Positions 7,516-56,400 of a DNA stretch of 64,000 nucleotides are shown piece after piece (the stretch's first letter is position 1; each line of letters opens with the position of its first letter). The stretch spans positions 221 to 64,220 of the forward strand of contig CALXCJ010000002.1 of NCBI GenBank assembly GCA_944386775.1. Direction: 5' to 3'. Below the pieces are notes generated by a model. The model made no database searches and was not told the DNA's origin. It saw nothing but the letters and a program-made list of their open reading frames with translations. A program made the position numbers and the translations under genes. Origin of the DNA: an uncultured Clostridia bacterium. GTDB taxonomy: Bacteria; Bacillota; Clostridia; TANB77; CAG-508.

Positions 7516-7555
7516 CATTGTTACTAAAAATGTTTAGTTTATGTTTATTTAAAAG

Positions 7556-7742
7556 TTAAATAAATTATTATCAAAAAATTTATTAAAATTTAAATAAATA
7601 TAATTATTGTTCAAAAATTAATTTAAAATTAAATAAATAATTATTTTCCAGAAGATAATTTGAAATTTGAATAAATAATTATTGCCTAGAACTTAATTTA
7701 AAATTTAAATAAATAATTATTGCCCAAAAATTAATTTAAAAA
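7556..7742. repeat. Five degenerate 34-39 bp tandem units derived from the gatD 3' end
   Basis: TT(A/G)AATAAATAA recurs at 7556, 7590, 7629, 7667 and 7705, matching the gene end TTGAATAAATAG at 7504-7515. Three units contain the palindrome AATAATTATT. Confidence 0.8.
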
Positions 7743-7757
7743 TAAGTTAATTTTTGG
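7724..7757. terminator. Bidirectional hairpin between convergent gatD and the HNH gene
   Basis: CCAAAAATTAA (7724-7734) pairs with TTAATTTTTGG (7747-7757). The stem is 11 bp and AT-rich. Confidence 0.45.
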
Positions 7758-7801
7758 ACAATAATTTTAATGTCTTTTTCTGTAAACATAGTTTTAAAGT
7801 T

Positions 7802-12430: not shown

Positions 12431-13765
12431 TTAATGTTCTTTTAAATACCTTTTTAACAAAAAGGTCAAGAAATATGGAAATGTATAAAATTTTCCGTTA
12501 AATCCTATATTTTTATTACATAATTTTATACCATATTTAATATCTTTATATAATTTGCTATTTATCAAATTATTAAGAGAAATTGTTGCATTATCATTTG
12601 CTTTTACTTCAATAGGGATTAATGAATTTTTATCCCTTAGCATAAAATCCATTTTGATTTTTTTACTATCATCTTTATAAAAATATAAATCATATCCTTC
12701 TTTTACTAGCATATCACTTACAATATTTTCATACAATGCACCCTTATATGCATTTATATTTTCGTTATTTCTTAAATCTTCTTGAACTTCTTCATCTAAT
12801 GAACCAATTAGTAAGCCGGTATCTGCAAAGTATAGTCTATAATTATCAGGATTATAGTTTCCTTTTAATGGAAGAGAAGCTTGCTCCATTGCATAAGAAA
12901 TATTTACAATTCCAGCATTTGCGAGCCATTCTACAACACCTACATATTCCCTGTTTCTTGCTCCATTTGCTATTTTTGATATTTGAAACTTTTTATTTTC
13001 ATTCCCTAAAAATACTGGTACTTTTCTATAGCAATTCAATATTTTGGTTTTATCTAGTCCTCCTGCGTATTTTGTTATATCTTCTTCATAATCTAGCAAA
13101 ATCTGCTGTTGCATTTTTAAAATTCCACTAAAATTTTTGTTTTCTATAAATTGGCTTACTATTGCAGGCATTCCTCCTACTATCATATATTCTTTAAAAT
13201 TAGTCATCATGATATCATATTGCATTTTACTTAATGGTTTTAGCTCTTTCATATGTTTATATAAATCATTAATTTGTTCATCACTATAACCTTTAGCCCA
13301 TAAGAATTCTTCAAAGTCTAGAGATCTTAATATATAGTCTTCTTTATTTCCCACACTATTTGATTCAATTTCTTTGTAGTTTATTCCCATTAAAGAACCT
13401 GAACAAATTACATCGTATCTACCGTCTTCTTTAAAGGCTTTTAATGAAGTAGCTGTACTTACACAGTCTTGCATTTCATCAAAAAAGATTAATGTATTAT
13501 TTTCGGTTATTTCAAATTCTGGCATTTTTAGTGTTATATTTTTTATTATATTATCAACTTCAAATCCTTCTTCAAATATTGTTTTAAATTGTGGTTGAAG
13601 TACAAAATTTATTTCAATAAATGTTTTATAATTGTTCTTTCCAAAGTTTCTAATTGCATTTGTTTTTCCAATTTGCCTTGCTCCTTTTACTATTAAAGGT
13701 AATTTATTGTGATTATTTTTCCATTCTATAAGATAATTATCAATTTTTCTTTTTAATCTTTCCAT
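12431..13765 (-). CDS. AAA+ ATPase, COG1373/DUF4143 type
   Basis: Walker A GARQIGKT and Walker B IFFDEMQ in a 444-aa protein. AGGAGG lies upstream. A paralog is at 27065-28366. Confidence 0.75.
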   Translation of the reverse strand: MERLKRKIDNYLIEWKNNHNKLPLIVKGARQIGKTNAIRNFGKNNYKTFIEINFVLQPQFKTIFEEGFEVDNIIKNITLKMPEFEITENNTLIFFDEMQDCVSTATSLKAFKEDGRYDVICSGSLMGINYKEIESNSVGNKEDYILRSLDFEEFLWAKGYSDEQINDLYKHMKELKPLSKMQYDIMMTNFKEYMIVGGMPAIVSQFIENKNFSGILKMQQQILLDYEEDITKYAGGLDKTKILNCYRKVPVFLGNENKKFQISKIANGARNREYVGVVEWLANAGIVNISYAMEQASLPLKGNYNPDNYRLYFADTGLLIGSLDEEVQEDLRNNENINAYKGALYENIVSDMLVKEGYDLYFYKDDSKKIKMDFMLRDKNSLIPIEVKANDNATISLNNLINSKLYKDIKYGIKLCNKNIGFNGKFYTFPYFLTFLLKRYLKEH

Positions 13766-13920: not shown

Positions 13921-16107
13921 TTAAAATGTTACATTATCTCCAAAATGTTCTTCCAATTTAATTTTTGAATCTTGTGATAAGTTTATATTGCCTGTTAAAA
14001 TTATTTTAGTATCTGGGTTTAATTCTAGTAGTGCTGTTGCATCAATTATTGAATTGTTGCTTAAATCGATGGTTAAATTAGTATTATTTTTCAACACTTT
14101 TAGGTTTTCTAGATCTTCACTCCATAATGTATTATTACTTAAATTAAGATTTGTTAAATTAGTTAGTTTAGAAAAATCTATCATTCTTCCATGTAAGTTA
14201 TTATTAGATAAATATAAATTTTGTAAACTTGTTATTTGAGATACGTTTTCAAAATTAGATATATTCGGATTATTAGTTAAGTCCAATATTAATAACTTAT
14301 TAAATTTTGATAAATCAGGTAATTCTGTTAAACTACTACTACTTAATCCTAATTTTGTAATTTTATTAACATCACAATTTACTATTGTTTTTAAGCTTTC
14401 TGTTGAAACATGTAAAGCATTTAAATTTGAAATAATATCTTCTATTTCTGATAAATCAACATTATTATTTTCTCCAATTAGATATAACAGTTTTAATTTT
14501 TTCAAATTATTAATAGGTTTTATATTTTTTAATTGATTATAATTTAGTTCAAGTCTTGTTAAATTAGTCATACTTTCCAATATTTGTTGTGATTTCGTAT
14601 CTTCTAATGTTAATTGATTATCACTTAGCACCAATTCCGCTAATTGAGTTAAACCTTCTAATGGTTCTAATGTTGTTAAGTTTTGATTATTTAATTTTAT
14701 TTTTTTATAATTAGTAAATAATCCTAATTTATCTACATCTAAAAAAATATCTCCACCCCTATCTAAAATCTTTCCTATTTCATTTAATGCCTCTAATCTT
14801 TTTCCTGTATAATTTTCTCTATTGCCATCTATTTTTGGATTGTGAAGCAAGTCTAGTGAAGTTAAAGAACTATTTGAACTTAAAGGTGTAATATCAACTA
14901 TATCATTATTACTCAAATATAATACTTCTAAATTTTTTAGATTTTCTAATCCTTCTATATTTTCTATTTTGTTATTTGCTAAATTTAAATTTGTCATATC
15001 AACGAAATTATCTAGTCCATCAATTTTTGTTATTTCGCTATTTGTTAAAGTTAGATCTTTTATATTTTTTAATTCTGCTAGTCTTTTCATATTGACATTT
15101 AAATTTCTGCAATTTAGAATTTCTAAATTATCACAAAATTTTAAAGCATCTATTATATTATCCCAATCTGTTCCAAAATTTCTTCTAAACTCCCTTAATT
15201 GTGATAAATTCTTAATTACTGTGTAATCTTTATCCGGTCCATAGTTTATAATTAAAGTTTTTAATTTAGTACAATTTTCTACACCATCCATTTTAGTAAT
15301 GTTAGGAGCATTGCTGGCATTTTCTCCTAATGTCAAACTTTCTAAATTAGGAAAAAATACTAAATCTTCTAAACTGTCCACTGCTGGATCTGTTATTGTT
15401 AAGCTTGTTTGGTTTTTCATCCATTCAAACTTCATTTCTTCTTCTGTTGCACCTGATATTGTTGATACATATTCACTAAACGCCTTACTTGCAAATCTTA
15501 TTTTTGTTTCGTCTTCTAATATCTTGTCTTCTAACTCGTCTCCATATTCACTTCCATTACTTGCTATGTATTTTACATTTAAATTGTCATCTATTAAAAA
15601 TACATCTTTTAAGCTTGCTATATTGCCTTTTCCTAAGCCTTGCATTCCGTCTACTGCATCTTCTTTTAGCACATAGTACATATAGTAGTTTCCGTCTTCT
15701 GCTTGCTGTACTGTTCTATTTACTTTTCCTTCTGTTAGTAATGTTTCTGGTGTCATTTCTTCTTGCTCTATTACTTTTTCTGTTTGCTCTAATCTTAAAT
15801 TTTCTTTTACTGCTGCAACGGCTGTTTCCATTTTGGCTGAGTTTGCTTGGTTTAGTATGCCGTTTGGTGCCGATAGTGTGCTAATTGTTACTCCTGCAAG
15901 GATTAGAAGGACTATGATTGTTACTATTAATGCAATTAGTGTTATTGCATTTTCTTTTATTTTCTTTACTTCCATTATTTCTTTTGCTGCCTTTATTCCG
16001 TTTGCTTTTTTTATTTCATTTGCTTCATTTGTTTCTTTTGCTTTCTTTATTTTCTTTGCTTTGTTTGTTTCTTTTGTTTTTCTTGATTTTCTCTTTTCTT
16101 TTAACAT
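13921..16107 (-). CDS. Leucine-rich-repeat surface protein with pilin-like N-terminal hydrophobic module
   Basis: 728 aa. Lys-rich repetitive leader, then AITLIALIVTIIVLLILAGVTISTLSAPNGIL, then about 20 LRR units (LxxLxLxxNxIxxI). GGGAGG lies before the ATG. Confidence 0.8.
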   Translation of the reverse strand: MLKEKRKSRKTKETNKAKKIKKAKETNEANEIKKANGIKAAKEIMEVKKIKENAITLIALIVTIIVLLILAGVTISTLSAPNGILNQANSAKMETAVAAVKENLRLEQTEKVIEQEEMTPETLLTEGKVNRTVQQAEDGNYYMYYVLKEDAVDGMQGLGKGNIASLKDVFLIDDNLNVKYIASNGSEYGDELEDKILEDETKIRFASKAFSEYVSTISGATEEEMKFEWMKNQTSLTITDPAVDSLEDLVFFPNLESLTLGENASNAPNITKMDGVENCTKLKTLIINYGPDKDYTVIKNLSQLREFRRNFGTDWDNIIDALKFCDNLEILNCRNLNVNMKRLAELKNIKDLTLTNSEITKIDGLDNFVDMTNLNLANNKIENIEGLENLKNLEVLYLSNNDIVDITPLSSNSSLTSLDLLHNPKIDGNRENYTGKRLEALNEIGKILDRGGDIFLDVDKLGLFTNYKKIKLNNQNLTTLEPLEGLTQLAELVLSDNQLTLEDTKSQQILESMTNLTRLELNYNQLKNIKPINNLKKLKLLYLIGENNNVDLSEIEDIISNLNALHVSTESLKTIVNCDVNKITKLGLSSSSLTELPDLSKFNKLLILDLTNNPNISNFENVSQITSLQNLYLSNNNLHGRMIDFSKLTNLTNLNLSNNTLWSEDLENLKVLKNNTNLTIDLSNNSIIDATALLELNPDTKIILTGNINLSQDSKIKLEEHFGDNVTF

Positions 16108-16221
16108 TCGTTTTCCTCCCTTTTTTCTTGTTTTGTATTCTTTTTATAATTTTCTTATACTTTTTATATAAAATATTTTGTCATTTGAAGTAATTTTTTA
16201 CTATTATTTTTTGTATATTTT

Positions 16222-16415
16222 ATAATTAAGTATAAGACTTAATTATAAACATCAAATCCAGCATTTTCCCATTCTTCATAGGATTTAGCGCTCCAAAATT
16301 TCAAATTTTTTATTTCTTTTTTTAATTATTAACTTAATATTGACTTAAAACAAAATTAGTGGTATAAAATACTTAACAAATTTTTTCAAAATAATTAATT
16401 CTTATACTTAATTAC
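16222..16415. promoter_or_regulatory. Candidate invertible promoter (inverton 1), assembled in the OFF orientation relative to the LRR gene
   Basis: Site ATAATTAAG-TATAAGA-CTTAATTAT (16222-16246) matches the reverse complement of 16391-16415 at 23/25 positions, with the 7-bp core exactly inverted. The internal promoter TTGACT-17-TATAAA (16340-16368) fires rightwards, away from the gene. Confidence 0.65.
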
Positions 16416-16488
16416 AACCTCTAAAATAGCCAACCCCATTGTATTTTCACATATATTTAATAATCCTAATTAAAAATCTTTAGAAATT

Positions 16489-16520
16489 AAAAAAACCGTT
16501 TTATCTTTTAACTTAAAACG
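16489..16520 (-). terminator. Terminator of the spoIIIA operon
   Basis: CGTTTTA (16497-16503) pairs with TAAAACG (16514-16520). On the minus strand the hairpin is followed by GTTTTTTTAATTT. Confidence 0.6.
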
Positions 16521-16573
16521 ATTTTCTATTTATAAATCAAATTTTTAAATTACACCCTACTGCCAAACCGCAA

Positions 16574-27064: not shown

Positions 27065-28366
27065 TTAATCTATACAAAATGTAGCATATAAAGGAATGGA
27101 TTTTATATTATTAGAAAATCCGAAATTTTTTGTAGAAATTCTTATTGCATATTTAGGCTGATATCTTTTTATATAAACATTTAAACTCTGACTTCCAACA
27201 TTATCATTTGCCTTTACTTCAATTGGTATAATTCCATCATTATTATATAAGATGAAATCAACTTCAGCTTGATTTCCAGACTCCCAATACATTAATGGAA
27301 TATTTTTTGCTACCAATTGTGTAGCAACGTAATTTTCAGCAATTATTCCTTTATATTGTAAAAGATTATCTAATATAATATCATTATATTTTACTTGTAA
27401 CATGCTTACTAAAATTCCAACATCACTTAGATACAATTTAAAATGGTCATCAATAATAAAACCTAATGGTGGAATTTCTGGTTTCTTTAATATAGAACAT
27501 TTATGAATCATTGTGCTTGAAAGTAGCCAGTTCAATGCTGTTTCATAATCTCTTTTTCGTGCATTTGAGGATATTTTCCCATATTGAAATTTATTACTCA
27601 TATTTCCTAATTGCGAAGGAATAGATTTGTATATTGTTTCTATCTTGCTGGCTTCAAATTTATTTGAAACATATTTGTTCATATCATTTAGATAAGATTG
27701 ATAAATATCTTCAATAATAGTTTTATCAAATTTCAATATATCTTTTTCATTAGCAATTATATCTTTTACTGCTTCTGGCATTCCTCCAACACATAAATAT
27801 AGTCTGTATAAATTTAGTGCTTTTTCATGCAATACCGAATCCATAGGTGTACTTTTTATATAACATTTTTTAATTTCGTCAACGAGAGATTCACTACCAT
27901 TTGCAATCAAAAATTCTTCAAAATCCATAGGATACATATTTAACATTTTAACTTTTCCTACTGGAAATGATGAATGCATCCTTTTTAATTTTACGCCTAG
28001 CAAACTGCCGGCACATATTATTTTAAAAGGTTTTTGGCTTTCATTAAAGTATTTTAATGCACTTATTATTTCTTCACTTTCTTGAACCTCATCGAAAAAT
28101 ATTATAGTGTTTTCCAAATCAATGTCTTTATCCAAATAAATTTTCATTCTATTAAATTTTTCAGCTGTATTAATTTCTTCCTTAAATATTTTTATAATCT
28201 CAGTTTGCTCTAATAGATTTATATAAATATATTCTTTAAATTCTTTCTTGCAAAATTCGTCTATAATATATGTTTTGCCAATCTGTCTTGCTCCTATTAT
28301 CATTAATGGTTTTTCAATACTAGAATTTTTCCAATTTAATAACTCTTGATAAATTTTTCTATACAT
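27065..28366 (-). CDS. AAA+ ATPase, COG1373/DUF4143 type (paralog)
   Basis: Walker A GARQIGKT and Walker B IFFDEVQ. Start set at ATG 28366, 7 nt after GGAGGTGA. Confidence 0.75.
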   Translation of the reverse strand: MYRKIYQELLNWKNSSIEKPLMIIGARQIGKTYIIDEFCKKEFKEYIYINLLEQTEIIKIFKEEINTAEKFNRMKIYLDKDIDLENTIIFFDEVQESEEIISALKYFNESQKPFKIICAGSLLGVKLKRMHSSFPVGKVKMLNMYPMDFEEFLIANGSESLVDEIKKCYIKSTPMDSVLHEKALNLYRLYLCVGGMPEAVKDIIANEKDILKFDKTIIEDIYQSYLNDMNKYVSNKFEASKIETIYKSIPSQLGNMSNKFQYGKISSNARKRDYETALNWLLSSTMIHKCSILKKPEIPPLGFIIDDHFKLYLSDVGILVSMLQVKYNDIILDNLLQYKGIIAENYVATQLVAKNIPLMYWESGNQAEVDFILYNNDGIIPIEVKANDNVGSQSLNVYIKRYQPKYAIRISTKNFGFSNNIKSIPLYATFCID

Positions 28367-28504
28367 AAGCTCACCTCCATTGTTATTATACAATATATTA
28401 TTACACAAGTCAATTGAATTTCACGTTTCTTACACCACATATTATGCGTTGTTTCACGTTTTTTACACTATATAAATCACTCATTTGAATAGTCATTTGA
28501 AACA

Positions 28505-41819: not shown

Positions 41820-43442
41820 TTATTGGGTTTTTAGCCATTCTATAAATTCTTCATAACTATTTAAATTGTCTTCTACTCCTTTTATACTTTTTTCTATATA
41901 GTCTTGATTGTTTATTGCTTTTACATTTAGTGTATTTAAATAGTATAGGTTACTTAATTTATCAGTATTTGCTTCTTGTCTTCCTATTACTGCTCCTATG
42001 TTTGTTGTTCCTTCTACTTGTCCTTTGTTATAGCAGTTGGTTATGTCAAATGTTTCTGCATTTCTTCCTATTATTCCTCCGACTTGGTTTTCTCCGCTTA
42101 TTTTTCCTTTATTGTAGTTATTTTCTATTCTTCCTGATGTTCCTGTTTGTGATGTCCAACCTACTATTCCTCCGGATATTCCTTGTACTGTTTGTACTTC
42201 TCCTTCGTTGTAGCAGTTTGTTATATTTGCTTCACAGTCTGTTCCTATTGAACCTGCTATTCCTCCGACATTATTTGCATCTGTATCTGTTTTTGTGGAT
42301 GTTATGTTTCCTGTATTTGAACAGTTTGATATATTAGTATTTGGATACAATTGACCTACTATTCCTCCTACATTGTCACTTCCTGATACATTTCCAGTAT
42401 TAACACAATTAGTTACATTATAACCATTTATACCAGTATATGTTGTACCTATTATTCCGCCAACCAACATACCATTTTTTGATATGACTTCTCCTGAATT
42501 TGTACAATTTTCTACTGAAGCATCTGAAACACCAACTATTCCTCCAACATTTCCATTTTCACTTTTTACTATTGTGTTAACATTATTACAATTTTTTACT
42601 TCTCCTACATTAATTCCTACTATAGCACCAACTGCAGAAAATATATTTCCAGCAATAGTACACCCTTCTATATAGCTATTTTGAATTGTTAAATTTTGAA
42701 TAGTGTTACCACTCATACCAAATAATCCATATATTCCCGCTTCAGTTGTATTATTTATATATATTCCAAAAATAGTATTATTATTTCCTTCAAAAGTCCC
42801 AGAACAAGTCATTATAGTCTTCCACTCTGTACCTAAAGTTAATACCCCCTCTTCCTGCCTTGCTCCCATATCTAAATTATTTTCTAGATATACTGTTGTT
42901 TCTTCTGTTATTTCTTTTTCTTCTGTTATCCCTACACTTTGTTTTTCTGCATCGTCTACTTCCCCATTACAATACCTTGCAAAAAAATTCATTTGTGCTG
43001 TATTATATATATGCCAGTTAAATTCTTCATCTATTTCTGGGACCTCTGATGATATTCCATCCCATACATCTACTCTTCCTTCTAACACTGTTCCATCTTC
43101 ATATACTGTTACTACTACGTCATCTCTTTCTACATAGTACATATCTCCTACGCTTTCATTTTTTGTTACTGTTGCTCCTGCTACTTCGTTTAGGGCTTCT
43201 TCTGTTGTTTTTCCGTTTGATGTGTAATCGTCTATTAGTTTGTCTGATAATGCTATTTTTACTTCTTCTAATAGTGTGTTTTGGTTTGATTCTTCTTTGG
43301 CCTTTGTTGCGTTTTCTAGTATTCCATTTGGTCCGGTTAGTGTTGCTATTGCAACCCCTGCTAAAATTAGTAATACTATTACTGTTATTACTAGTGCGAT
43401 TAGTGTGATTCCTATCTCGTTTTGTAGTCTTTTGTTTTTCAT
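41820..43442 (-). CDS. GLUG-repeat surface protein with pilin-like N-terminal module
   Basis: N-terminus MKNKRLQNEIGITLIALVITVIVLLILAGVAIATLTGPNGIL, followed by about 10 repeats of the type NVGGIVG....I.NC.N.G.V. Confidence 0.8.
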   Translation of the reverse strand: MKNKRLQNEIGITLIALVITVIVLLILAGVAIATLTGPNGILENATKAKEESNQNTLLEEVKIALSDKLIDDYTSNGKTTEEALNEVAGATVTKNESVGDMYYVERDDVVVTVYEDGTVLEGRVDVWDGISSEVPEIDEEFNWHIYNTAQMNFFARYCNGEVDDAEKQSVGITEEKEITEETTVYLENNLDMGARQEEGVLTLGTEWKTIMTCSGTFEGNNNTIFGIYINNTTEAGIYGLFGMSGNTIQNLTIQNSYIEGCTIAGNIFSAVGAIVGINVGEVKNCNNVNTIVKSENGNVGGIVGVSDASVENCTNSGEVISKNGMLVGGIIGTTYTGINGYNVTNCVNTGNVSGSDNVGGIVGQLYPNTNISNCSNTGNITSTKTDTDANNVGGIAGSIGTDCEANITNCYNEGEVQTVQGISGGIVGWTSQTGTSGRIENNYNKGKISGENQVGGIIGRNAETFDITNCYNKGQVEGTTNIGAVIGRQEANTDKLSNLYYLNTLNVKAINNQDYIEKSIKGVEDNLNSYEEFIEWLKTQ

Positions 43443-43509
43443 TTTTTCTTTTCCTCCTATTTTTTTATTTTTCTTTTTTTGCTGTCTTTTATTTTGGATT
43501 TTATATTTT

Positions 43510-43703
43510 ATAATTAAGCAAAAAACTTAATTATATTTTCAAAAATCGTTAATTGCTTTATATTACTAGATTTTAGAGGTTTTTTGTGTCTTGGATTTTA
43601 CTACATTTTTATAAAAAACATTTTTCATTTATTGACAATTTTTGCGTTTAATGCTATATGTTTAATGTATTCATTAATTTAATTAATTTTTTTGCTTAAT
43701 TAC
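43510..43703. promoter_or_regulatory. Candidate invertible promoter (inverton 2), OFF relative to the GLUG gene
   Basis: ATAATTAAG-CAAAAAA-CTTAATTAT (43510-43534) matches the reverse complement of TTAATTAAT-TTTTTTG-CTTAATTAC (43679-43703) at 22/25 positions, with the core exactly inverted. Internal promoter TTGACA-17-TATATG (43632-43660) fires rightwards. Confidence 0.65.
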
Positions 43704-43832: not shown

Positions 43833-43876
43833 GACCTGGTCACAGTTAACCATTTTTGGTTAATCGTGACCAGGTC
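43833..43876. repeat. REP-like long hairpin (type 1 variant)
   Basis: GACCTGGTCAC-AG-TTAACCA-TTTTT-TGGTTAA-TC-GTGACCAGGTC. It shares the 16-mer ACCATTTTTGGTTAAT with 41747-41762. Confidence 0.75.
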
Positions 43877-43906
43877 TTAATTAGCCATATATTAAATTTT
43901 ATTATA

Positions 43907-48602: not shown

Positions 48603-50300
48603 TCATTGCCAATATAGTATAGGGTATCTATTATTTATATTATTTGTGTCTTCTTTAAAACTATTTCCTAATGTTACATATAAACTTTGTAATTCTAAAC
48701 TTGTTTTAAAAGAACACTCATTTCCTATTATAGAATTGTTGACTCCGCATAAATCTGTTGTTACGTTTTCTAGAGAATATGAATTATAAATCTTTCCAAT
48801 ATATGTTGTATCTGTTTCTGCATAATAAAATTCATTATTATTTCCAACTAAACTTCCTTTTTTCTCTATTTCTCCATTAACATTTCCAACATTATAGCTA
48901 TTTTCTAATGTTCCTCTATTTAGTCCTATTAATCCTCCAACACATTCATATAAACCTGTTACTGCACCTGTATTATAGCAATTCATAATATTGGATTCAT
49001 TCATTCCAACTAATCCGCCAATATTAGAATTGCCATTTTCATTCTGACCTATCGCTTTTATGTCTCCTGCATTGTAACATTGACTTATTAAAGTATTTAC
49101 AGAATTATATCCACATATTCCACCTACATAGTATTGTGCCTCTACATCTCCAGTTGTATAACAATTATTTATAGCTGATTTTTCTCCTAAATATCCTGTT
49201 ATACCTCCTACCATATTTTCACCATTAACAATTCCTGTATTATAACAATTTACTGCATTTGAATTTAGGTTAACACTACCAACTACTCCTCCTACATGCA
49301 TAGTTCCTGTAACTTCTCCTATATTATAACATTCTTTTATATTAGAATCTTGAGCAACATATCCTGCCACTCCTCCTGTAAATTCACTTGTTCCATTTAT
49401 TCTACCTTCATTATGGCCATTTGTTATAATTGTATTAACATATGCACATCCTACAATTCCAGCACCATATGTTGAATTTATGTTTGCATTATTAGAGCAA
49501 TTGCTTATTACACTATTATTATAAGCATATCCAACAATTGCTGCTGTTGCACTTCCACCAGTTATGTTGCAATTTTCACCTATATTTAAATTAATAACTT
49601 TTCCACTATCTATGAGACCAAACAGCCCTTGTACTTTATTGGTTGTATTTATATAAATTCCATCTACATTATGATTTTTGCCATCAAATATCCCACTAAA
49701 AGGAATATTTGATTCATTATCAGGTGATGAATTTTCATTTAGATATAATCCTATAGGTACCCATAGTTCATTTATATCTAAAGTTATATCATTTACTAAA
49801 TATATATACCAGCCATTATAACTATTTCCTTCATTTACCTTATCTCTAAAATTCTTCAATTCATCTACTGTACTTATTTTTAACATATTTTCTTCTGATA
49901 TTACTTGTTTTTCATCTACATAATACATTCTTTTAGTATCATTCATATTTACTATAAAACTTCCATCACAATTATCTGTAACTGTGAAGTCTTTATTTTT
50001 TCCAAACTGATCTTTTATTGAATTTTCTAGACTTTCTTTTGTTATTTTAAATGTATCAAGATCCTCCATCTTGCTAGACGTTGCAGCCAGTTCAAGTCCT
50101 TCTTTTTCCTGTGTTTTTTCTGTTTTATTCTTACTTTCACTAGCTCTAGTTAAAATTCCATTTTCCCCAGTTAGTGTCGCTATTGCTACTCCTGCAAGGA
50201 TTAGTAAAACTACAATTGTAATTACCAACGCCACCAAAGTAATCCCTCTTTTACCTTTTGTTTTTTCTTTCGTTTCTCTCCCAATTCTTAATTTTTCCAT
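48603..50300 (-). CDS. GLUG-repeat surface protein with pilin-like N-terminal module (paralog)
   Basis: N-terminus MEKLRIGRETKEKTKGKRGITLVALVITIVVLLILAGVAIATLTGENGIL, then repeats of the type VGGI.G......I.NCYN.G.V. Start set at ATG 50300 directly after GGAGGAAAAA. The track ORF uses an upstream TTG. Confidence 0.8.
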   Translation of the reverse strand: MEKLRIGRETKEKTKGKRGITLVALVITIVVLLILAGVAIATLTGENGILTRASESKNKTEKTQEKEGLELAATSSKMEDLDTFKITKESLENSIKDQFGKNKDFTVTDNCDGSFIVNMNDTKRMYYVDEKQVISEENMLKISTVDELKNFRDKVNEGNSYNGWYIYLVNDITLDINELWVPIGLYLNENSSPDNESNIPFSGIFDGKNHNVDGIYINTTNKVQGLFGLIDSGKVINLNIGENCNITGGSATAAIVGYAYNNSVISNCSNNANINSTYGAGIVGCAYVNTIITNGHNEGRINGTSEFTGGVAGYVAQDSNIKECYNIGEVTGTMHVGGVVGSVNLNSNAVNCYNTGIVNGENMVGGITGYLGEKSAINNCYTTGDVEAQYYVGGICGYNSVNTLISQCYNAGDIKAIGQNENGNSNIGGLVGMNESNIMNCYNTGAVTGLYECVGGLIGLNRGTLENSYNVGNVNGEIEKKGSLVGNNNEFYYAETDTTYIGKIYNSYSLENVTTDLCGVNNSIIGNECSFKTSLELQSLYVTLGNSFKEDTNNINNRYPILYWQ

Positions 50301-50418: not shown

Positions 50419-50611
50419 ATAATTAAGCTAGAAAATTAATTAAAATTACAAATTTATACTTTGCTACTGAGTAAAGATTTTTCACTAGAATTATTAATAT
50501 TTTTTTAATTTTAAAATAATAATATCCATTCATAATATATTGACTTTTTTTATTTAAAATGCTATATATTTAATTAATATTAAAATATCATTAATTTTCT
50601 AGATTAATTAA
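50419..50611. promoter_or_regulatory. Candidate invertible promoter (inverton 3), OFF relative to the second GLUG gene
   Basis: ATAATTAAG-CTAGAAA-ATTAATTAA (50419-50443) matches the reverse complement of ATCATTAAT-TTTCTAG-ATTAATTAA (50587-50611) at 21/25 positions, with the core exactly inverted. Internal promoter TTGACT-17-TATATA (50540-50568) fires rightwards. Confidence 0.6.
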
Positions 50612-50890: not shown

Positions 50891-51289
50891 CTATAATTTT
50901 TCTATTTCACTTTTTGTTAACCCTGTTATTTCTTCTATTTCTTTTACTTGCATTCCTTTAGCTTTCATATTTTTTGCTATTTCTTTTTGTTTCTTTTCTT
51001 CTCCAATCTTTTGTCCTTCTTCTCTCGCTCTTTTCTCTTTTGTAAATTCTTGATATTCTCCCATTACTTTCCAATCGTTTATTCTTTGCATTACTTCATC
51101 TTGACTTATTTCTTCTAGCTTTTCTTTTGCTTTTTTTACTCCTTCATTTTCATCCATTATCTTTTTCACCTCTTCTGATTTTGGATTCTCTAAGAAATAT
51201 AACCACTCTAATAATTTGTCTTCTTTATTTCTTTTTTCCTTATATATCTTAGGTAATTCAATTCGTATATTCAGAATATTCCCCCTCAT
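50891..51289 (-). pseudogene. C-terminal remnant of an Rpn/YhgA-like PD-(D/E)XK recombination-promoting nuclease (putative transposase family)
   Basis: IRIELPKIY...LEWLYFLENP...IAKNMKAKGMQVKEIEEITGLTKSEIEKL matches the C-terminal half of the family. The roughly 170-aa N-terminal nuclease domain is absent. The ORF abuts the stop of the upstream gene. Confidence 0.55.
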
Positions 51290-56256: not shown

Positions 56257-56400
56257 TTTTATAAATTAACTTATAGTTATCTTATAAAGTATCTATACTA
56301 TTTTATGAATTAGCTTATAACTATCTTATAAAGTAACTTATACTATTTTATAAATTTGCTTATACTTATTTTACAAATATTTTTTATTAGTCACGACTTT
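56257..56400. repeat. Three 44-45 bp tandem units ending in the 3' end of the small pilin-like gene
   Basis: TTTTATAAATTAACTTATAGTTATCTTATAAAGTATCTATACTA-like units start at 56257, 56301 and 56346. Confidence 0.7.

Follow-up and report, generated by a model that had tools for sequence, protein, structure and literature searches.

Invertible promoters placed before the surface genes of gut bacteria, including Clostridia, are an element type already known (PMC11892184, PMC11602134), and large surveys link many Clostridia invertons to tyrosine recombinases (PMC11892184). In Mycoplasma penetrans, each lipoprotein gene of the mpl (P35) family has an invertible promoter of its own (Horino et al. 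2003, summarised in PMC2268961). In C. difficile, RecV, a tyrosine recombinase that is encoded remotely, inverts several short elements, i.e., cwpV, flgB and cmrRST; the flgB switch measures 154 bp and has 21-bp imperfect repeats (PMC5914908).

The window, i.e., the whole stretch of DNA that was analysed, is 64,000 nucleotides long and comes from an uncultured Clostridia bacterium, a spore-former with DNA of low GC content (about 26-27%). A cassette of 194 bp, inverton 1 (16222-16415), is localized there upstream of the gene of a leucine-rich-repeat (LRR) surface protein. The initial annotation had placed two inverted sites at the ends of this cassette, and reading of the sequence bears out both positions. 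The putative proximal recombination site (16222-16246) is ATAATTAAG-TATAAGA-CTTAATTAT, with the arm ATAATTAAG at 16222-16230, the core TATAAGA at 16231-16237 and the arm CTTAATTAT at 16238-16246. The putative distal site (16391-16415) is ATAATTAAT-TCTTATA-CTTAATTAC, its arms being at 16391-16399 and 16407-16415 and its core at 16400-16406. Each site is a dyad, in which inverted 9-bp arms surround an asymmetric 7-bp centre. The match of 23/25 positions between the proximal site and the reverse complement of the distal one, previously claimed, is found again: a mismatch search with the proximal site finds the distal one with 2 mismatches when the other strand is read. The asymmetric centre is inverted exactly, and the orientation of the sites is inverted and not direct, as had been stated. 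The repeat finder also pairs them as inverted repeats and extends the pair to 36 nt at 83%.

The initial observation is confirmed, and the sites greatly exceed what chance would give. The site pattern of inverton 1 has 0 matches in 100 dinucleotide shuffles. Inverted pairs of 25 nt with at least 22/25 identities, 100-300 nt apart, occur at 4 places in the 64-kb window, and 3 of the 4 are inverton 1 and its two sibling cassettes; no such pair, at the same spacing, was obtained in 25 Markov-simulated windows. The only other strong inverted-repeat locus of the window is an intergenic array (7540-7780) of AT-rich repeats of about 38 nt (AATAATTATTGYYCAAAAATTAATTTAAAAT...), in direct and inverted orientation, which is unrelated to the switch sites.

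The interior of the inverton 1 segment (16247-16390, 144 bp) contains the promoter, which is the sole part kept between cassettes. This promoter (16340-16368, plus strand) consists of TTGACT (16340-16345), 17 nt and TATAAA (16363-16368), with an extended -10 TG at 16360-16361. By sequence-based promoter scoring, it is the top sigma-70-like match of the region 16100-16425, both strands considered. The near-consensus character and the rightward direction, away from the LRR gene, agree with what was first described; this is also the case for the 22 nt between the promoter end and the distal site, and for the absence of a comparable leftward promoter in the cassette or leader. A promoter divided between a site arm (-10) and the interior (-35) does not hold, since the position of the -35 is inside the inner arm in both orientations.

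The fixed leader (16108-16221, minus strand) has a length of 114 nt and carries the ribosome binding site GGGAGG at 16115-16120 (plus-strand coordinates); seven nt past it is the ATG, at 16107-16105 of the minus strand. The ATG is indeed to the left of the proximal site, at 114 nt and not at 115 nt as first given. The gene putatively controlled by inverton 1 (13921-16107, minus strand) encodes the LRR protein, of 728 aa, whose N-terminus is composed of a K/E-rich repeat and then of AITLIALIVTIIVLLILAGVTISTL, a pilin-like hydrophobic helix. About 7 in-frame tandem repeats of 18 bp (6 aa), at 15952-16076, form an unusually long K/E-rich stretch before this helix; a change of their copy number could be a second source of variation. 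The genes around the cassettes are a housekeeping set (spoIIIA operon, fab and acc genes, nrdD, murB). Genes of AAA_14/DUF4143 ATPases are present directly downstream of the LRR gene (12431-13765, minus strand) and at 27065-28408 (minus strand), and recur near GLUG genes in the contigs L037-L040 and L025.

An arms-only search of the window (TAATTAAK-N7-MTTAATTA; the site consensus of the family can also be written TAATTAAG-N7-MTTAATTA) gave two further pairs, at 43511/43680 and 50420/50588. The first, inverton 2 (43510-43703), has its sites at 43510-43534 and 43679-43703, the core CAAAAAA/TTTTTTG and a promoter TTGACA-17-TATATG (43632-43660, plus strand), downstream of which, in the OFF orientation, a strong two-way terminator is found. 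The gene downstream of inverton 2 (41820-43442, minus strand) encodes a GLUG protein of 540 aa. The second, inverton 3 (50419-50611), has its sites at 50419-50443 and 50587-50611, the core CTAGAAA/TTTCTAG and a promoter TTGACT-17-TATATA (50540-50568, plus strand); its downstream gene (48603-50300, minus strand) encodes a GLUG protein of about 566 aa. The three invertons have in common: (i) the 9-bp arms, the flank ATTTTATAATTAAG and a start-to-start spacing of 168-169 bp; (ii) a TTGACW-17-(TGC)TATAWW promoter located 18-23 nt from the distal site; (iii) an equal polarity with reference to a minus-strand gene on the left. The cores differ (TATAAGA, CAAAAAA and CTAGAAA), and each is mirrored exactly in its own partner. 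Two other features were seen near these siblings: to the right of inverton 2 and just beyond the 3' (stop codon) end of the fabI-like gene, a near-perfect palindrome of 45 nt (43833-43877, GACCTGGTCACAGTTAACC...GGTTAATCGTGACCAGGTC), which may be an operator or a terminator, and a PD-(D/E)XK (Rpn-like) transposase fragment (50891-51289, minus strand), 280 nt to the right of inverton 3.

Outside the window, a two-site pattern scan of representative genomes detected nine loci, distributed over two MAGs of uncultured Clostridia. Two loci more appeared when the fetched DNA was scanned less strictly, and an ENA contig with slightly diverged arms (L012) added one. The family thus totals 15 distinct loci, 3 in the window and 12 in other uncultured Clostridia assemblies. 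One arm consensus is shared by all 15 loci, while the cores correspond to 7 different matched sequences. In 14/15 loci the core is the exact reverse complement of the partner core; the exception, L001 (1361-1552), has a single core mismatch (TATATAA vs TATAAAA). L001 shows that sites can decay, and may be a switch locked OFF. The core TATAAAA is used in 8/12 of the MAG-side cassettes.

The covariation was counted on twelve distinct paired-site rows, loci with identical sites being merged. The core columns contain 15 cells changed on both sides (Watson-Crick) vs 1 unpaired cell, and no one-sided change of the G-U type occurs in these columns among the twelve rows. This level of covariation was reached by 0 of 500 shuffles, and the signal is lost when the register is slid by 1-3 columns. 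When the interiors are anchored on the distal site, the sole conserved element is tATTGACt-N14-TGc-TATAtT, the remainder being unalignable. This promoter, whose activity is predicted from its sequence, points outward in all 15 cassettes and is located 18-19 nt from the distal site in 13/15 loci; inverton 1 is off by 4 nt and L012 by 1. The invertible-promoter architecture in an OFF state, which the initial annotation had proposed on one cassette, is supported by these 15 like-built cassettes, by the covariation of their cores and by the promoter as the only conserved element of the interiors.

The overlap region of tyrosine recombinases, i.e., where crossover takes place, is 6-8 bp long. In the present family, constrained arms and a core that is free to vary, provided that it matches its partner, point to such a crossover region, a pattern that operators, a transposable element or an RNA stem do not predict; constant arms with a partner-matched variable core are, as far as sequence can tell, the signature of it. 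The layout is of the corresponding core type, with a 9-7-9 succession of arms and core and identical (inverted) partner cores in 14/15 loci. Sites of serine invertases (Hin/Gin/Mpi-type) have an even length and a central 2-bp crossover (12-2-12). Here, a Hin/Mpi-type site is argued against by the 7-bp core, which is odd and asymmetric and has the dyad axis on its middle base.

Inverton 1 is likely to be an invertible-promoter switch that gives phase variation. The inverted sites would be synapsed by a site-specific recombinase of the tyrosine type, whose gene would be located elsewhere in the genome, two monomers binding the inverted 9-bp arms of each site. Strand exchange within the identical 7-bp cores would then invert the 144-bp interior plus the cores. 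No integrase or resolvase domain was found by Pfam in 51 ORFs of the window (most of those of the minus strand that reach 120 aa; five are without family), so the enzyme would have to act in trans. In the OFF state, the single, putatively strong sigma-70 promoter would fire rightwards into the 3' end and the hairpin of the convergent spoIIIAH gene, leading to a short dead-end transcript. A weak two-way hairpin (16492-16525), located between the cassette and spoIIIAH, is the probable end of this transcript. In the ON state, the flipped promoter would be about 18-23 nt from the proximal site and would transcribe the site and the 114-nt leader into the LRR gene, with a predicted 5'UTR of about 155 nt. 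No terminator-like hairpin with a U run is present in this modelled 5'UTR. The expected flipped junction is ATAATTAAGTATAAGA-ATTAATTATTTTGAAAAAATTTG, and the ON junction would be ATAATTAAGTATAAGA+ATTAATTATTTTGAAAAAA. Since the arms are common, one recombinase specificity would also work invertons 2 and 3, i.e., those of the GLUG-repeat adhesins, and the three different cores would limit recombination to the cognate partners.

The leaders contain further copies of the sites. In that of inverton 1, a degenerate third copy (16146-16170) reads ATAATT--TTCTTATACTT--TTTAT, the core plus 3 nt being exact at 16153-16162; in the modelled ON 5'UTR, it forms a long stem with the recombination site. In the leader of inverton 2, TTTTTTTGCT (43473-43482) corresponds to its own core plus 2 nt, a sequence of low complexity. 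Such copies may represent relic sites or decoys, or may be elements of the mRNA.

A static module is an unlikely alternative to the switch. The palindromic 9-7-9 sites would then be operators of a dimeric regulator, possibly closing a 169-bp loop; there would be no inversion, and the promoter would be either fixed and divergent or a relic, a once-active switch now locked OFF being included in this reading. The dyad-symmetric, operator-like arms of each site are consistent with it, as are the absence of a recombinase gene among the scanned ORFs of the window and the decayed core of L001. The same holds for orientation: 18/18 assembled copies are OFF, i.e., the 15 loci and three re-observations in other samples, namely the cassette of L043, where the inverton 2 gene has an orthologue of 94% identity, and both members of the tandem pair L005, found again in L053. 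These all-OFF assemblies are the principal weakness of the switch reading, and for this family inversion is what we infer. Nevertheless, a real switch can give such a consensus, since the minority orientation is often low: in a survey of about 11,000 read-supported invertons, its main peak is at about 2% (PMC11602134). A DNA pattern specific for the ON state had 0 matches in metagenome and viral collections, which lack the family altogether; the orientation-neutral pattern gave two chance matches only, so that the former result says nothing on flipping. Two properties of the family argue against static operators. Operators give no reason for spacers that are not contacted to be mirrored between partners across 7 sequences. 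Moreover, a conserved strong promoter directed into unrelated convergent 3' ends (spoIIIAH, fabI-like, PDDEXK fragment) would be functionless unless reversible.

Indirect support for the switch reading is given by a sister family, found upstream of the GLUG homologue P0140, which was obtained from nine samples (L044-L052) and is 46% identical to the inverton 2 protein. Its sites, TTCCTAGAT-TTTAATA-CTCTAAGAA and TTCTTAGAG-TATTAAA-ATCTAAGAA, have the same 9-7-9 organization and mirrored cores with different arms, and its promoter, TTGACT-17-TAGAAT, points outward beside the distal site (e.g., L045 202-419 and L047 1-356). The contig L047 (ERZ12590415:k141_51274) is palindromic, with exact inverted ends of 94 nt: the first 94 nt reproduce the repeat, the leader and the gene start exactly, in reverse complement, and adjoin the promoter end of the interior. 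Read in this way, L047 carries the flipped (ON) junction of the sister family, found only in flipped molecules, and the sample probably held both orientations of the sister cassette. The palindrome could conceivably be an assembler artefact. This flipped junction is the sole one seen, and it belongs to a family with other arms.

The second alternative, a true inversion with a logic other than promoter ON/OFF, is still less probable than static operators. Inversion would act after initiation, as in C. difficile, by antisense transcription or interference, or by modulation of genes already served by a leader promoter. A conserved T(G/A)GACA-17-(TGA)TAnnnT element is indeed present in the fixed leaders of inverton 3, where it is TGGACA-17-TATTTT (50368-50340, minus strand), and of many MAG paralogues (L001, L003-L008). 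It scores equal to the cassette promoter, resembles the promoter of the non-switched gene 56387-56866 and is a candidate orientation-independent promoter; thus, for inverton 3 and these paralogues, OFF may not mean silent. Moreover, the cwpV and flgB switches of C. difficile act after initiation (PMC5914908), and in the tandem arrays L005 and L009 the downstream unit, when OFF, directs its promoter into the 3' end of the paralogue that precedes it. On the contrary, the leader element is absent from invertons 1 and 2, the leader of the sister family is only about 35 nt long and offers no room for a promoter, and the promoter is the single conserved payload of the cassettes, placed to read out through a site.

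It is very improbable that the cassettes are miniature inverted-repeat transposable elements (MITE), whose terminal inverted repeats and outward promoter would have been inserted upstream of genes. They are short, AT-rich and present in many copies, with terminal inverted repeats of 25-36 bp; nevertheless, only the arms and the promoter are common to the copies, whose interiors cannot be aligned, the central 7 bp vary between copies and agree within a copy, the sites have no flanking target-site duplication, and every copy precedes a gene of one paralogous family at the same distance and with the same polarity. Equally improbable is a long-range stem of RNA (or single-stranded DNA) between the sites, in which the covariation would be base pairing: the strict complementarity with compensatory changes fits it, but the outward promoter is inside the would-be loop, so that no transcript from it has both arms, only the central 7 bp show compensatory changes, each site being itself a protein-type dyad, G-U intermediates are missing, and Rfam has no match in the window.

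Exact-protein look-ups (LRR, SpoIIIAH, FabI-like and P0001) of the inverton 1 locus in other samples returned none. Orthologues of the LRR gene in related species (62-72% identity) have no inverton upstream, even at a locus syntenic with the spoIIIA neighbourhood (L025/L026); it follows that individual genes gain or lose the cassette. In L005 (1576-4031), L053 and L009 (2710-5346), switched genes are arranged in tandem, each with its own inverton. The tandem invertons of L005 and L053 have identical cores (TATAAAA), which would in principle permit deletion or inversion of a whole gene unit.

All three switched proteins have the N-terminal motif K/R-G/A-ITL(I/V)AL(V/I)ITI(I/V)VLLILAGV.IATL.G.NGIL, the core of which, K/R-G/A-ITL(I/V)AL(V/I)ITI(I/V)VLLILAGV, is also present in MAG homologues and in a protein of 159 aa (56387-56866). 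In type IV pilin-like proteins (class III signal), a basic N-terminal leader and a G/A residue precede a hydrophobic helix to which pilin profiles respond. Here, matches to pilin profiles are all below threshold (GspG/PilA, E 0.05-0.1; geopilin/PilE1 chains, E 0.03-0.1), and the canonical Glu5 is replaced by Ala. A pilin-like nature of the switched proteins is no more than suggested by this N-terminus. The protein of 159 aa (minus strand) is pilin-sized, begins with RG-VTLIALAITIIVLLILA as in the switched adhesins and is without inverton. The adjoining gene (57074-57502, minus strand) encodes an Asn/Ser/Thr-rich protein of 142 aa with an LPKTG sorting signal.

More distant GLUG homologues (P0160 and P0211; L027-L036 and L037-L042) have no inverton. 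Their leaders contain a fixed TTGACA-17-TATAAA promoter, a short ORF, an (AG)n tract and a terminator hairpin. In L037-L042 this element is about 200 nt upstream of the gene, and several contigs break there. The length of the (AG)n tract differs between samples (L037 vs L039). Such leaders may indicate that members of this gene family are under attenuation or slipped-strand control.

If active, the three switches would let an uncultured gut spore-former with a small genome vary the large adhesins that it displays, with a bearing on colonisation, on evasion of host antibodies and possibly on phage resistance. A wider proposal is that one trans-acting tyrosine recombinase runs independent promoter switches throughout the genome for alternative pilin-like adhesins, in which LRR or GLUG heads are borne by a common N-terminus of the pilin type, giving uncultured gut Clostridia a combinatorial surface display, and that naturally heterospecific 7-bp cores insulate the switches here. 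This proposal is tentative, and the chances are rather against it as a whole. If true, insulation by the cores would prevent lethal inversions or deletions of 7-27 kb between switches with identical arms, as essential genes are located between them, and would be a natural counterpart of the engineered spacer variants of lox. The use of one core, TATAAAA, by 8/12 MAG cassettes weakens this part of the proposal. In any case, the family offers a clean natural data set on the evolution of tyrosine-recombinase sites, with constant arms and a co-varying 7-bp core, and its compact 25-bp site consensus can be used to seek the cognate recombinase.

As for earlier descriptions, three short site-arm strings had no match in two supplementary files of the hCom2 inverton paper, and neither this site consensus nor a Clostridia inverton linked to pilins was met with in the accounts consulted. 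Several known systems share part of the present organization. In spacer variants of lox/FRT, the binding arms are constant and the crossover spacer decides which sites recombine, the lox variants being engineered. The Rci/sfx shufflon has a 7-bp core and diversifies a type IV pilus adhesin; it rearranges coding segments and not promoters. Constant arms with a variable core are common to lox/FRT, Rci and the present sites, whose cores would restrict the choice of partners, most of the MAG relatives being on TATAAAA. The fimS element of E. coli (FimB/FimE) is a single locus of 314 bp with 9-bp repeats, adjacent recombinase genes and IHF/Lrp dependence. It resembles the switches proposed here in having a promoter in a short invertible segment, with short inverted repeats and in front of a pilus/adhesin operon, and in its use of tyrosine recombinases.

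Mpi of Bacteroides fragilis is a serine recombinase. It is similar as an invertase acting in trans on many dispersed promoters of polysaccharides and surface proteins, most of them OFF at any time, with a common repeat consensus (PMC2268961); it differs by the repeat consensus itself, by the type of promoter (Bacteroides sigma) and by the phylum. The RecV switches are taxonomically the closest known system: the host is also a Firmicute, a recombinase acting in trans is proposed here as well, and the elements are short and upstream of genes for surface structures. However, the RecV sites are disparate repeats and cwpV and flgB are controlled after initiation (by a terminator or otherwise), whereas one arm consensus and a promoter payload are found here. 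The mpl cassettes are reportedly about 135 bp long with 12-bp repeats, and candidate recombinase genes are said to lie near the mpl clusters. Unlike them, the present family has 25-bp 9-7-9 sites, a 194-bp cassette, genes of possibly pilin-like LRR/GLUG proteins of a spore-former and no recombinase among the scanned ORFs nearby. By analogy, the mpl family is nevertheless the closest in logic: in the account given in PMC2268961, it is a dispersed multigene family of surface proteins in which each gene has its own short and independent promoter cassette and in which tyrosine recombinases are implicated.
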